DNA of 64,000 nt, taken from the NCBI RefSeq assembly GCF_054482595.1, contig NZ_CM137008.1; one strand, written 5' to 3'. Under the pieces are notes generated by a model, which had not been told where the DNA came from, did no database searches, and was given only the letters and a program-made list of their open reading frames with translations. This document shows, piece after piece, positions 5,219-50,721 of this stretch. The stretch's first letter is position 1; each line of letters starts with the position of its first letter. The position numbers and the translations under genes were made by a program.

Positions 5219-6511
5219 TTATACGGTTTTATTGCGCTTCATGACCATTGCCACAATAAGGCTGAGTAAGAGTGAGCCAATAATCCATATCAACGCACGG
5301 CTACCCTGGGACCACAGACTGTAGATAAAGCCAACGATCACCAACAACATCACCAACGTACCAACGATAAGAATCGGCAACGAGGCGTGAATATCATGAC
5401 GCAGGCGGATCGCCACCACAAACACCGCCAGGTAGCAAATCAAAAAGGTGGCGCTGGCAACACTGGCGAGTGAGCCTAAATTTAGCGCCGCCGTCATCAG
5501 CATAATCAACACCACGACAATGATGTTGCCCCAGGTACTCTGCCGCCACAGGGATTTATTCATTAGCTTCGGCAGTTCGCGTTCGCTGCCCATGTTGTCC
5601 ATGATGTTAAACACGGCGAACAGGTTCGCGTTAATGGCTGAAGCCGTCGCCAGTAAAGCGCCGATGACGACGATCACATAACCCACATGTCCGAGCAGCG
5701 GAGAAGCAGCCTGCGCTACGGCGGTATCGGCATATTTTTCTAACTCTAATGCCGATACATCGCTAAGCAAAACCAGTGCCAGCGAGATATAAAGCAACGT
5801 GGTAACGCCAATCGCCACCAGAAACGCCCGCGGCATAATGACCTGCGGATCTTTCACTTTATCCGCCGCGTTCGCCATCATGCCAAAGCCCGCATAGGCA
5901 AGGAAGGTTATCCCGATACAGGAGAAGAACGCACCGGAGCTGGGGGGCGCAGAGACGGAAATATGCGCCGGTTGCAGCGACCAGACACCGGCAATAATCA
6001 GCAATAACAGGATCATCATTTTAATGCCGACGAGGATCACTTCCAGCCGCCCTACCGCATGGTTGCTTAAGGAGTTGAAAAGCGTCATCACCGCAATGAT
6101 CCCCAACGCGTAGAGCAAAATAAGGTGCTCCTCCTGGCTGCCTTCATGCAAAAACTGCACGGCATAAGCGCCAAAAGCACGGGCGACCATAGCGATGCTC
6201 ACCGCCAGCGTCAACAGGTACAGTAACGAGAGCGCCAGCGAAAAGACGCCGTTGCCTAATCCGCGACGAAAGAAGTCGATAATGCCGCCATTGCTGGGAT
6301 AGCTCGCCCCCAGACGCGCATAGGCATAACCGGAAAACATCGCCACAATACCGCCAAAAGCAAAGGCGACCCAGGTCGAGGCTTCCATTAGCAACGCAGC
6401 CTGCCCCAGCAGCGCGAAGATCCCCGCCCCCACCATTGCCCCAATACCGATGGAAACGACATTCCATAGACCGAGGGGTTTGTTACCGTTATTACCTTCC
6501 GTGTTCATCAT
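5219..6511 (-). CDS. ybaT: APC-family amino acid transporter YbaT
   Basis: 430-aa polytopic membrane ORF immediately downstream of glsA, forming the ybaS-ybaT operon. Confidence 0.9.
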   Translation of the reverse strand: MMNTEGNNGNKPLGLWNVVSIGIGAMVGAGIFALLGQAALLMEASTWVAFAFGGIVAMFSGYAYARLGASYPSNGGIIDFFRRGLGNGVFSLALSLLYLLTLAVSIAMVARAFGAYAVQFLHEGSQEEHLILLYALGIIAVMTLFNSLSNHAVGRLEVILVGIKMMILLLLIIAGVWSLQPAHISVSAPPSSGAFFSCIGITFLAYAGFGMMANAADKVKDPQVIMPRAFLVAIGVTTLLYISLALVLLSDVSALELEKYADTAVAQAASPLLGHVGYVIVVIGALLATASAINANLFAVFNIMDNMGSERELPKLMNKSLWRQSTWGNIIVVVLIMLMTAALNLGSLASVASATFLICYLAVFVVAIRLRHDIHASLPILIVGTLVMLLVIVGFIYSLWSQGSRALIWIIGSLLLSLIVAMVMKRNKTV

Positions 6512-44430: not shown

Positions 44431-45291
44431 ATGAGTCAGGCGCTCAAAAATTTACTGACATTGTTAAATCTGGAAAAAATTGAGGAAGGACTCTTTCGCG
44501 GCCAGAGTGAAGATTTAGGTTTACGCCAGGTGTTTGGCGGCCAGGTCGTGGGTCAGGCCTTGTATGCTGCAAAAGAGACCGTCCCGGAAGAGCGGCTGGT
44601 ACATTCGTTTCACAGCTACTTTCTTCGCCCAGGCGATAGTAAGAAACCGATTATTTATGATGTCGAAACGCTGCGTGACGGTAACAGCTTCAGCGCCCGC
44701 CGGGTTGCTGCTATTCAAAACGGCAAACCGATTTTTTATATGACGGCCTCTTTCCAGGCACCAGAAGCGGGTTTCGAACATCAAAAAACAATGCCGTCCG
44801 CGCCAGCGCCTGATGGCCTGCCTTCGGAAACGCAAATCGCCCAATCGCTGGCGCACCTGCTGCCGCCAGTGCTTAAAGATAAATTCATCTGCGATCGTCC
44901 GCTGGAAGTCCGTCCGGTGGAGTTTCATAACCCACTGAAAGGTCACGTCGCAGAACCACATCGTCAGGTGTGGATCCGCGCAAATGGTAGCGTGCCGGAT
45001 GACCTGCGCGTTCATCAGTATCTGCTCGGTTACGCTTCTGATCTTAACTTCCTGCCGGTAGCTCTACAGCCGCACGGCATCGGTTTTCTCGAACCGGGGA
45101 TTCAGATTGCCACCATTGACCATTCCATGTGGTTCCATCGCCCGTTTAATTTGAATGAATGGCTGCTGTATAGCGTGGAGAGCACCTCGGCGTCCAGCGC
45201 ACGTGGCTTTGTGCGCGGTGAGTTTTATACCCAGGACGGCGTACTGGTTGCCTCGACCGTTCAGGAAGGGGTGATGCGTAATCACAATTAA
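44431..45291 (+). CDS. tesB: Acyl-CoA thioesterase II
   Basis: Start trimmed to [20 protein letters not shown] (286 aa); double hot-dog fold family. Confidence 0.94.
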
Positions 45292-45295
45292 AAAA

Positions 45296-45330
45296 ATAGC
45301 CGGAGGTGAAAACCGTCCGGCTGTTTTTTG
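45296..45330. terminator. Bidirectional terminator between tesB and amtB
   Basis: aaaaaaat-agccggaggtg-aaaa-ccgtccggct-gttttttg: hairpin flanked by A-tract and T-tract. Confidence 0.8.
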
Positions 45331-45339
45331 CAGTGCTTG

Positions 45340-46626
45340 TTACGCGTTATAGGCATTCTCGCCGTGACTGTTGACATCCAGCCCTTCTCGCTCCTGCTCT
45401 TCCGGTACACGCAGACCAACCGTCAGATCCGCCAGTTTGTAGCCAATAAATGCCACCACACCGGACCAGACGATCGTAATGGCGATGCTTTCCAGCTGTA
45501 CCAGCAACTGATGGCCCATCGTCACGCCTTCAGCGAAGCCCACGCCACCCAGCGAACTGGCGGCAAAAATCCCAGTCATGATACAGCCGACAATGCCACA
45601 AACGCCGTGCACACCGAAGACATCGCAGGGATCATCCACCCGCAGCAAGCGTTTGAGCATAGTAACGCCCCACAAGCCCGCCAGACCAGCTACCACGCCG
45701 ATAATCAACGCGCCGCCAACCCCAATGTAGCCACACGCTGGCGTCACGCCGACCAGACCGGCAATCGCGCCAGAACACGCTCCCAGCAGAGAAGGCTTAC
45801 CACGCAGCGCCCATTCACCGAAGATCCAGCCAAGAATTGCCGCCGCCGTTGCGACCACAGTATTCACAAATGCCAGTGCCGCGATTTCATTCGCCGTGCC
45901 CGCTGACCCGGCGTTAAAGCCAAACCAACCAATATAGAGAATGGCAGTACCGGTGAAGACCATCGGCAGGTTGTGCGGTTTAAACGCCTCTTTACCGAAG
46001 CCCACGCGTTTTCCTATCAGATACGCGCCCACCAGACCGGCGATTGCGGCGTTAATGTGCACCACTGTGCCACCCGCGAAATCCAGCGCACCGTGAGAAG
46101 CCAGCAAACCACCGCCCCAGACCATATGCGCAATTGGAATGTAAGAGAGCGTCAGCCATACCACCACGAAAATCAACACAGCTGAGAAGCGGATTCGTTC
46201 CGCCAGCGCCCCAACTATCAAGCCTACGGTAATGCAGGCAAACGATCCCTGAAACGCTACGTGGATATACTGATAAATGCTGCCCATCACCGCCGTCAGT
46301 TCGATGTTTTTCAGCATCAGCCAGTTAATGTTGCCGAAGAAGTTGTTGCCCTCACCAAACGCCAGCGAGTAACCGTAAACCACCCAGAGAATACAGACCA
46401 GTGCGAATGTCACCGTCACCTGCGTCAGCATCGACAGAACGTTTTTGCCGCGAATCAACCCACCGTAAAACAGGGCAATCCCCGGAATAGTCATAAACAG
46501 CACCAGAGCAGTACAAATCATCATAAACGCATTGTCGGCTTTATCGGCCACCGCAGGTGCAGCCATTACCAGTCCCGGCAGCATCGCCAGTGAAGCAAGC
46601 CCAGTTTTTATCGTCGCTATCTTCAT
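45340..46626 (-). CDS. amtB: Ammonium transporter AmtB
   Basis: 428-aa ORF with signal peptide and 11-TM Amt/MEP architecture; downstream of glnK. Confidence 0.96.
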   Translation of the reverse strand: MKIATIKTGLASLAMLPGLVMAAPAVADKADNAFMMICTALVLFMTIPGIALFYGGLIRGKNVLSMLTQVTVTFALVCILWVVYGYSLAFGEGNNFFGNINWLMLKNIELTAVMGSIYQYIHVAFQGSFACITVGLIVGALAERIRFSAVLIFVVVWLTLSYIPIAHMVWGGGLLASHGALDFAGGTVVHINAAIAGLVGAYLIGKRVGFGKEAFKPHNLPMVFTGTAILYIGWFGFNAGSAGTANEIAALAFVNTVVATAAAILGWIFGEWALRGKPSLLGACSGAIAGLVGVTPACGYIGVGGALIIGVVAGLAGLWGVTMLKRLLRVDDPCDVFGVHGVCGIVGCIMTGIFAASSLGGVGFAEGVTMGHQLLVQLESIAITIVWSGVVAFIGYKLADLTVGLRVPEEQEREGLDVNSHGENAYNA

Positions 46627-46655
46627 TTTTCGTTCCTGTTGCTGTGTGCCAGAGA

Positions 46656-46994
46656 TTACAGCGCCGCTTCGTCGGCTTCGCCGGTACGAATACGAATGAC
46701 GCGTTGCAATTCAGCGACGAAGATTTTGCCGTCGCCAATTTTTCCGGTGTAAGCCGCCTTACTGACGATATCGATCACTTCATCGAGTTGGTCATCAGCA
46801 ATTGCCACATCAATTTTTACTTTTGGCAGGAAGTTGACGCTGTATTCCGCCCCCCGGTACAGCTCGGCATGCCCTTTCTGACGCCCGAAACCTTTCACTT
46901 CGGTGACGGTCAGGCCCTGAATACCAATGGAAGATAACGCTTCACGAACGTCTTCCAGCTTGAATGGTTTGATTATCACGGTCACCAGCTTCAT
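46656..46994 (-). CDS. glnK: Nitrogen regulatory protein PII-2 (GlnK)
   Basis: Start trimmed to MKLVTVIIKPFKLEDVREAL (112 aa); T-loop with Tyr51 (RGAEYSV). Confidence 0.95.
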   Translation of the reverse strand: MKLVTVIIKPFKLEDVREALSSIGIQGLTVTEVKGFGRQKGHAELYRGAEYSVNFLPKVKIDVAIADDQLDEVIDIVSKAAYTGKIGDGKIFVAELQRVIRIRTGEADEAAL

Positions 46995-47046
46995 AGATCC
47001 CCTCCGGTCAGAATTCGGTAATGGTTCTGCTACACGAAGAAGGTAT

Positions 47047-47062
47047 TGCAAGCGGTGTGCCA
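47047..47062 (-). promoter_or_regulatory. Sigma-54 (-24/-12) promoter of glnK-amtB
   Basis: Minus strand reads CTGGCACACCGCTTGCA (TGGCAC-N5-TTGCA), about 50 nt upstream of glnK ATG. Confidence 0.85.
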
Positions 47063-47174
47063 GAAATGAAAAACGAGAAAGAGAGCAGGAAGTTAAGAAG
47101 ATTGAAAATGAAAACGCACTATGACAGTGCACAGTGCGTTACATTTTTGCACCAACGATGAAATATTGCGCTAT

Positions 47175-50721
<3,547 letters not shown>

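Follow-up and report, generated by a model that had tools for sequence, protein, structure and literature searches.

In sigma-54 systems, the holoenzyme forms a closed complex at the −24 and −12 elements, phosphorylated NtrC (NtrC-P) reaches it by DNA looping, and promoter opening is driven by ATP hydrolysis. At the archetypal NtrC/sigma-54 promoter, Escherichia coli glnAp2, there are two strong NtrC sites near −140 and −108, extra "governor" sites and an overlapping sigma-70 promoter, glnAp1. Control of GlnK and AmtB by NtrC and sigma-54, together with the feedback of both proteins on ammonium uptake and on NtrB, is textbook biology. The primary papers on the E. coli glnK promoter (glnKp) are reportedly those of van Heeswijk et al. 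in 1996 and of Atkinson et al. in 2002 (J Bacteriol 184:5358).

For occupancy of glnKp by sigma-54 and NtrC, and for the NtrC dependence of glnK mRNA, we rely on the literature. Sigma-54 ChIP-seq identified site OS03, with the motif CTGGCACACCGCTTGCA and its centre at nucleotide 471761 of U00096.2 (Bonocora et al., 2015, PMC4591121, Table 1). OS03 is an in vivo peak 18-fold above threshold, its downstream gene on the plus strand is glnK, and the predicted transcription start lies 42 bp before the gene (PMC4591121). The site scores highly in nearly all the enterobacterial genomes compared in that study (PMC4591121, supplementary conservation table), and in 2015 EcoCyc listed the glnK promoter as "predicted", not as "experimentally confirmed" (PMC4591121). 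In vivo, sigma-54 also occupies many sites that lie within genes or show no transcriptional activity (PMC4591121). NtrC ChIP-seq peak 1 (471741-471821, 39.7-fold) is located immediately upstream of glnK and is assigned to glnK-amtB (Brown et al., 2014, PMC4066584); upon deletion of glnG, glnK mRNA is not readily detected, and complementation restores it (PMC4066584). In genomic SELEX, the mdlB/glnK spacer shows a peak with RpoN holoenzyme alone, with NtrC alone and with both together (Shimada et al., 2021, PMC8743547). glnKp has been described as a "simpler" promoter, the output of which depends exclusively on activated NtrC (Schumacher et al., 2013, PMC3870243), and it is activated later than glnAp2 and needs more NtrC-P (PMC3870243). 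Our literature search for a mapped glnKp transcription start site returned nothing relevant.

The mdlA-mdlB-glnK-amtB locus

The DNA analyzed here, referred to as the window, is a stretch of 64,000 nucleotides of the E. coli chromosome that carries mdlA-mdlB-glnK-amtB on its minus strand. The 901 bases around the promoter are 100% identical to many E. coli chromosomes, and this region was found in 5423 of 5426 complete E. coli genomes. The matching RefSeq record gives the gene order mdlA, mdlB, glnK and amtB, then the convergent tesB, and ybaY. The stop of mdlB marks its 3′ end at 47175 (minus strand, RefSeq). The glnK coding sequence (46656..46994, minus strand, ATG at 46994..46992) encodes a P-II signal protein of 112 aa plus stop, as supported by RefSeq, Pfam and PDB: it corresponds in RefSeq to WP_000780338.1 (339 nt, "P-II family nitrogen regulator"), and its product matches the Pfam P-II family with an E value of 1.4e-31. 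The second gene of the operon, amtB (45340..46626, minus strand; ORF, Pfam and RefSeq), encodes an ammonium channel of 428 aa plus stop, the product matching Pfam Ammonium_transp with an E value of 3e-133.

A gap of 29 nt separates the glnK stop from the amtB start, and a scan of this gap for terminator-like sites found none. A P-II gene is thus followed by a same-strand Amt gene with no terminator between them, which is the arrangement of an operon. An amtB homologue is also present 3′ of glnK in most of 79 related loci. On the other side of amtB, the convergent gap between tesB and amtB (45244-45330, plus strand) gives a sub-threshold match to the Rfam family Thr_leader (28.8 bits, the gathering score being 55), which most likely reflects only the terminator hairpin common to the convergent genes tesB and amtB.

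A sigma-54 core promoter upstream of glnK

The earlier note on this DNA had placed the motif TGGCAC-N5-TTGCA about 50 nt upstream of glnK and had proposed that a sigma-54 promoter drives glnK-amtB. Both statements hold. The minus strand reads TGGCACACCGCTTGCA (TGGCAC ACCGC TTGCA) from 47062 to 47047, with no mismatch to the motif, on the same strand as glnK and with 52 nt between the end of the motif and the glnK ATG. Extended by one base, the 17-mer CTGGCAC-ACCGC-TTGCA (47047..47063, minus strand) is the same as that of OS03, published as the site upstream of glnK (PMC4591121). Motif, conservation and the published ChIP-seq motif all identify it as a sigma-54 (RpoN) core promoter, in which GG at 47061-47060 forms the −24 element and GC at 47049-47048 the −12 element (both minus strand). 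When U00096.2 is mapped to the window by taking the glnK ATG as 471822, the OS03 centre at 471761 falls on 47055, that is, on the centre of the 17-mer. The closest described system is E. coli K-12 glnKp itself: the locus, the 17-mer, the coordinate and the flanking genes are the same, and no difference is detectable, the spacer of the window being 100% identical to that of many chromosomes.

TGGCAC-N5-TTGCA has a single exact match in the 64-kb window, 0.08 being expected from shuffles; at least one exact match was obtained in 8 of 100 shuffles. When the pattern was relaxed (TTGCW, one mismatch), 3 matches were found in the window and 3.8 were expected. As the relaxed pattern is not enriched, the motif alone is weak evidence, and the argument is carried by position and conservation.

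Other partial or complete occurrences of the motif were also considered. TGGCAC at 46651..46646, in the glnK-amtB gap, was rejected as a second sigma-54 promoter, since no GC follows at the −12 spacing and the ChIP-seq sites of PMC4591121 do not include it; the recurrence at this place (46645-46652, minus strand) of the 8-mer CTGGCACA of the −24 element is probably coincidental. TGGCACGCGTGTTGGT at 47497..47482, inside mdlB, was rejected for lack of the −12 GC. The only exact match to TGGCAC-N5-TTGCW other than that of glnK lies at 5781..5766 (minus strand), in sense orientation inside a 430-aa ORF (5219..6511); the 17-mer CTGGCACTGGTTTTGCT at 5766-5782 (minus strand) is the published intragenic sigma-54 ChIP-seq site IS02 in ybaT (PMC4591121).

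Applying the sigma-54 geometry of PMC4591121 (19 nt downstream of the motif centre), the transcription start is predicted at 47036 (minus strand), and from it the glnK leader would be 42 nt long. The 5′ untranslated region (46995..47035, minus strand), delimited by sequence and by a conserved block, carries a Shine-Dalgarno sequence GGAGG (47005..47001, minus strand) 6 nt before the ATG. Within the leader, the block GAATTCTGAC(C/T)GGAGGGGATCTATG is kept in the Enterobacteriaceae. The last ~22 nt (GAATTCTGACCGGAGGGGATCT; 46995-47018, minus strand) are almost invariant across this family; such conservation exceeds what a Shine-Dalgarno sequence needs and may reflect an additional translational or sRNA-related constraint. 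Rfam gave no family match in or near the glnK leader, and elsewhere sub-threshold matches only. A scan of positions 46500-47400 for sigma-70-like promoters found none.

Two NtrC sites and a pyrimidine-rich spacer

NtrC sites had also been predicted within 47070-47170. The prediction is borne out: two sites are present at 47115-47151, both conserved. The stronger one is a 17-bp NtrC (NRI) palindrome, TGCACTGTCATAGTGCG (47115..47131, minus strand), centred at 47123, approximately −87 from the predicted start, and is identified by its consensus match and its conservation. Compared with TGCACC-N5-GGTGCA it shows three mismatches, or two if position 6 is read as Y. The second, TGCAAAAATGTAACGCA (47135..47151, minus strand), is centred at 47143, approximately −107, and falls in a conserved block; it keeps seven of the eight core positions of the GCAnnA...TnnTGC box (PMC8743547), being otherwise degenerate. 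Judging by this degenerate match, TGCAAAAATGTAACGCA is expected to be weaker than TGCACTGTCATAGTGCG as an NtrC site. The two 17-bp sites are 3 nt apart, with their centres separated by 20 bp. Paired 17-bp dyads resembling the NtrC consensus TGCACCAnnnTGGTGCA, as quoted in PMC8743547, are therefore found upstream of the sigma-54 core, as the sequence of an NtrC enhancer should have them. When the whole window was searched with the NtrC consensus allowing up to 3 mismatches, 33 matches were obtained and 36 were expected. Since the consensus is not enriched, it cannot by itself support the assignment of an enhancer, and only position and conservation distinguish the site.

The enhancer–promoter spacer (47064..47114, minus strand) stands out by its T-rich and pyrimidine-rich composition, the 52 nt of the stretch 47063-47114 being 69% A+T and 85% pyrimidine on the glnK strand. 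A search of the spacer with the IHF consensus WATCAANNNNTTR, allowing up to 1 mismatch, gave no match.

The glnK promoter shares with glnAp2 the −24/−12 core (in glnAp2 TTGGCACAGATTTCGCT; PMC4591121, Table 1), the paired NtrC palindromes and the activation by NtrC-P. What sets it apart from glnAp2 is that its two sites, one strong and the other weak, are only 20 bp apart and lie nearer the promoter, and that it has no sigma-70 partner in the interval scanned (46500-47400).

Conservation of the promoter and enhancer across Enterobacterales

A GlnK protein scan with one genome per species provided 79 loci. Fifteen of these belong to the Enterobacterales, 14 with mdlB-glnK-amtB synteny and the fifteenth, from the Orbaceae, with glnK-amtB and without mdlB. 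A sigma-54 motif with at most 1 mismatch is present 43-88 nt before the ATG in 15 of the 15 Enterobacterales loci; elsewhere in the same loci, none was found in 91 kb, both strands considered. Upstream of the sigma-54 motif, each of the 15 loci also has an NtrC palindrome with no more than 2 mismatches, the background being 0.08 per 300 nt. When the whole set is considered, a sigma-54 motif occurs within 300 nt upstream in 35 of the 79 loci; here the background is 0.008 per 300 nt.

The glnK promoters of other Enterobacterales (Klebsiella, Enterobacter, Citrobacter, Yersinia, Photorhabdus) lie in the same synteny, with the sigma-54 core at the above-mentioned distance from the ATG, and possess the strong NtrC palindrome as in E. 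coli, usually accompanied by a second site 20 bp upstream; Yersinia and Rahnella are among those that have this second site. They differ from E. coli in the enhancer–promoter distance.

Alignment A1, comprising nine Enterobacteriaceae, shows three conserved islands: GGTGCAAAAATGTAACGCA-nnn-TGCACnnnnnnGTGCGTTTT, which corresponds to the two NtrC sites; TGGCA-N6-TTGC, which corresponds to the promoter; and GAATTCTGACNGGAGGGGATCTATG, which includes the leader, the Shine-Dalgarno sequence and the start codon. The TGGCA and TTGC columns are invariant in the nine sequences, and so are TGCAC and GTGCG of the strong NtrC site. The GGTGCAAAAATGTAACGCA block of the weaker NtrC site is kept in Escherichia, Citrobacter and Enterobacter. 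Between the islands the DNA varies freely, and the enhancer–promoter spacer differs both in length and in sequence between genera. As read from the alignment, this pattern of islands is the footprint to be expected for a promoter served by NtrC and sigma-54.

Enhancer–promoter spacing

Spacing was taken as the distance between the centre of the strong NtrC palindrome and the end of the −12 element (in the window, 47047-47123, minus strand) in loci L002-L013, L015 and L018. It is 76 bp for Escherichia, 86 bp for Citrobacter and 107 bp for Superficieibacter; Klebsiella and Photorhabdus have 119-120 bp, and Enterobacter, Yersinia, Rahnella and Acerihabitans have 129-131 bp. Within the sample, the spacing is shortest in E. 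coli and E. albertii; the strong NtrC site is located at approximately −87 in E. coli versus approximately −141 in Enterobacter and Yersinia. The five spacing classes are in phase for a helical repeat of 10.5-11 bp (resultant length 0.85-0.94, simulation p ~0.007-0.018), the sample being small and the five classes not phylogenetically independent.

A terminator-like hairpin overlapping the enhancer

Both a terminator scan and RNA folding point to a hairpin, AACGCACTGTG-CACTGT-CATAGTGCGTT (47113..47140, minus strand), followed by a T-run that extends to approximately 47101. The 11-bp hairpin sits 35 nt after the mdlB stop at 47175, and is built from the last bases of the weak NtrC site, the 3-nt spacer and the strong NtrC site. 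An RNA of 86 nt over the hairpin folds with −23 kcal/mol (z −3.5 versus shuffles). In nine Enterobacteriaceae, 92% of the cells of the helix are paired, one compensatory change from T-A to C-G is seen, which probably represents one event, and the T-run does not vary. In Yersinia, Rahnella, Acerihabitans and Photorhabdus the NtrC palindrome is retained but the T-run is missing; the T-run and the terminator-like context of the strong NtrC site are confined to the Enterobacteriaceae. The pairing potential is in part a by-product of having two palindromic NtrC sites next to each other. The supplements of two E. coli 3′-end mapping papers contain no entry for mdlB, glnK or b0449.

From the sequence of the hairpin and its T-run, we hypothesize that they constitute the intrinsic terminator of mdlAB. 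We suggest tentatively, in a reading that is somewhat likelier to prove wrong than right, that in the Enterobacteriaceae the glnK enhancer DNA may double, on the mdlB transcript, as the mdlAB terminator, insulating glnK against read-through from upstream and recruiting its activator with the same bases, and that insertions and deletions between enhancer and promoter may be accepted only in near-integral helical turns, which would imply a face-of-helix constraint on NtrC activation. Of this analysis, only the enhancer–terminator overlap and the helically phased spacing are not obviously present in the literature reached. Each of them, if confirmed, would refine a well-studied model promoter in a small way.

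Activation of glnKp and alternative readings

The sequence elements, their positions and their conservation, together with the published binding and expression data, lead us to conclude, with near certainty, that glnKp is the NtrC-activated sigma-54 promoter of the E. coli glnK-amtB operon. That glnKp works with an NtrC enhancer is already known, and the use of the finding is limited to annotation hygiene and to serving as a positive control. In the model that we favor, sigma-54 holoenzyme would bind the −24 GG and the −12 GC at 47063..47047 and would form a closed complex unable to open by itself. Upon nitrogen limitation, NtrC would be phosphorylated by NtrB, NtrC-P being made when, at low glutamine, GlnB and GlnK carry uridylyl groups. 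NtrC-P would then oligomerise on the adjacent sites at approximately −87 (47131..47115), presumably the one of higher affinity, and at approximately −107 (47151..47135), presumably the one of lower affinity; it would reach the polymerase through a loop of the 52-nt T-rich spacer, and ATP hydrolysis would open the promoter. Transcription from near 47036 would produce a bicistronic mRNA with a 42-nt leader, on which GlnK (112 aa) would be translated from the ATG at 46994 behind GGAGG, and AmtB from a start 29 nt after the glnK stop.

The motif could be read instead as a silent or chance sigma-54 site, with glnK-amtB relying for its transcription on a sigma-70 promoter or on read-through from mdlAB. 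Bound sigma-54 sites are indeed often inactive or intragenic (PMC4591121), one such site is located in the same window within ORF 5219..6511, and the relaxed sigma-54 pattern is not enriched in the window. However, the scan of 46500-47400 gave no sigma-70-like promoter, and the terminator-like hairpin with its T-run, placed between mdlB and the promoter, makes read-through from mdlAB less likely. Moreover, glnK mRNA is NtrC-dependent (PMC4066584, PMC3870243), and the motif and the upstream NtrC sites are conserved across Enterobacterales, whereas the flanking DNA is not. Taking these data into account, we consider a silent or chance site to be very improbable.

A reading that we consider even less credible concerns the glnK start. 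The program-made ORF list contains a 158-aa ORF (46656..47132) that starts at GTG and spans the promoter; were it real, GlnK would bear a 46-residue N-terminal extension encoded from the GTG at 47132 on a transcript starting further upstream. In its favor, both E. coli and E. albertii have an open frame from 47132 onwards. Against it, glnK measures 339 nt in RefSeq, GGAGG stands 6 nt before the ATG, and the P-II homology and the structures cover residues 47-158 of the long ORF: the Pfam P-II domain starts only at residue 47, and the PDB chains 1GNK, 2GNK and 2NUU of E. coli GlnK, of 112 aa, correspond precisely to those residues. The GTG (47132..47130) falls within the NtrC sites, on the upstream side of the promoter, and lacks a Shine-Dalgarno sequence. 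In loci L006, L009, L010, L012, L013 and L014 the frame upstream closes within 1-16 codons and contains no start codon, and in the remaining loci of other genera it encodes an unrelated peptide of variable length. No coding sequence is annotated over the mdlB/glnK spacer in the sampled genomes. The earlier note was thus right in asking that the 158-aa extension be rejected, as the P-II domain, the GlnK structures and the RefSeq gene each begin at the ATG. The 46 additional codons (46995..47132, minus strand) are spurious, the 158-aa ORF is an artefact, and glnK starts at the ATG at 46994.

The mdlB ORF of the same program-made list is also over-long. It starts at a GTG at 49070 and comprises 631 aa (47175-49070, minus strand); mdlB according to RefSeq measures 1782 nt, corresponding to 47175-48956 of the window, and shares 8 nt with the end of mdlA.
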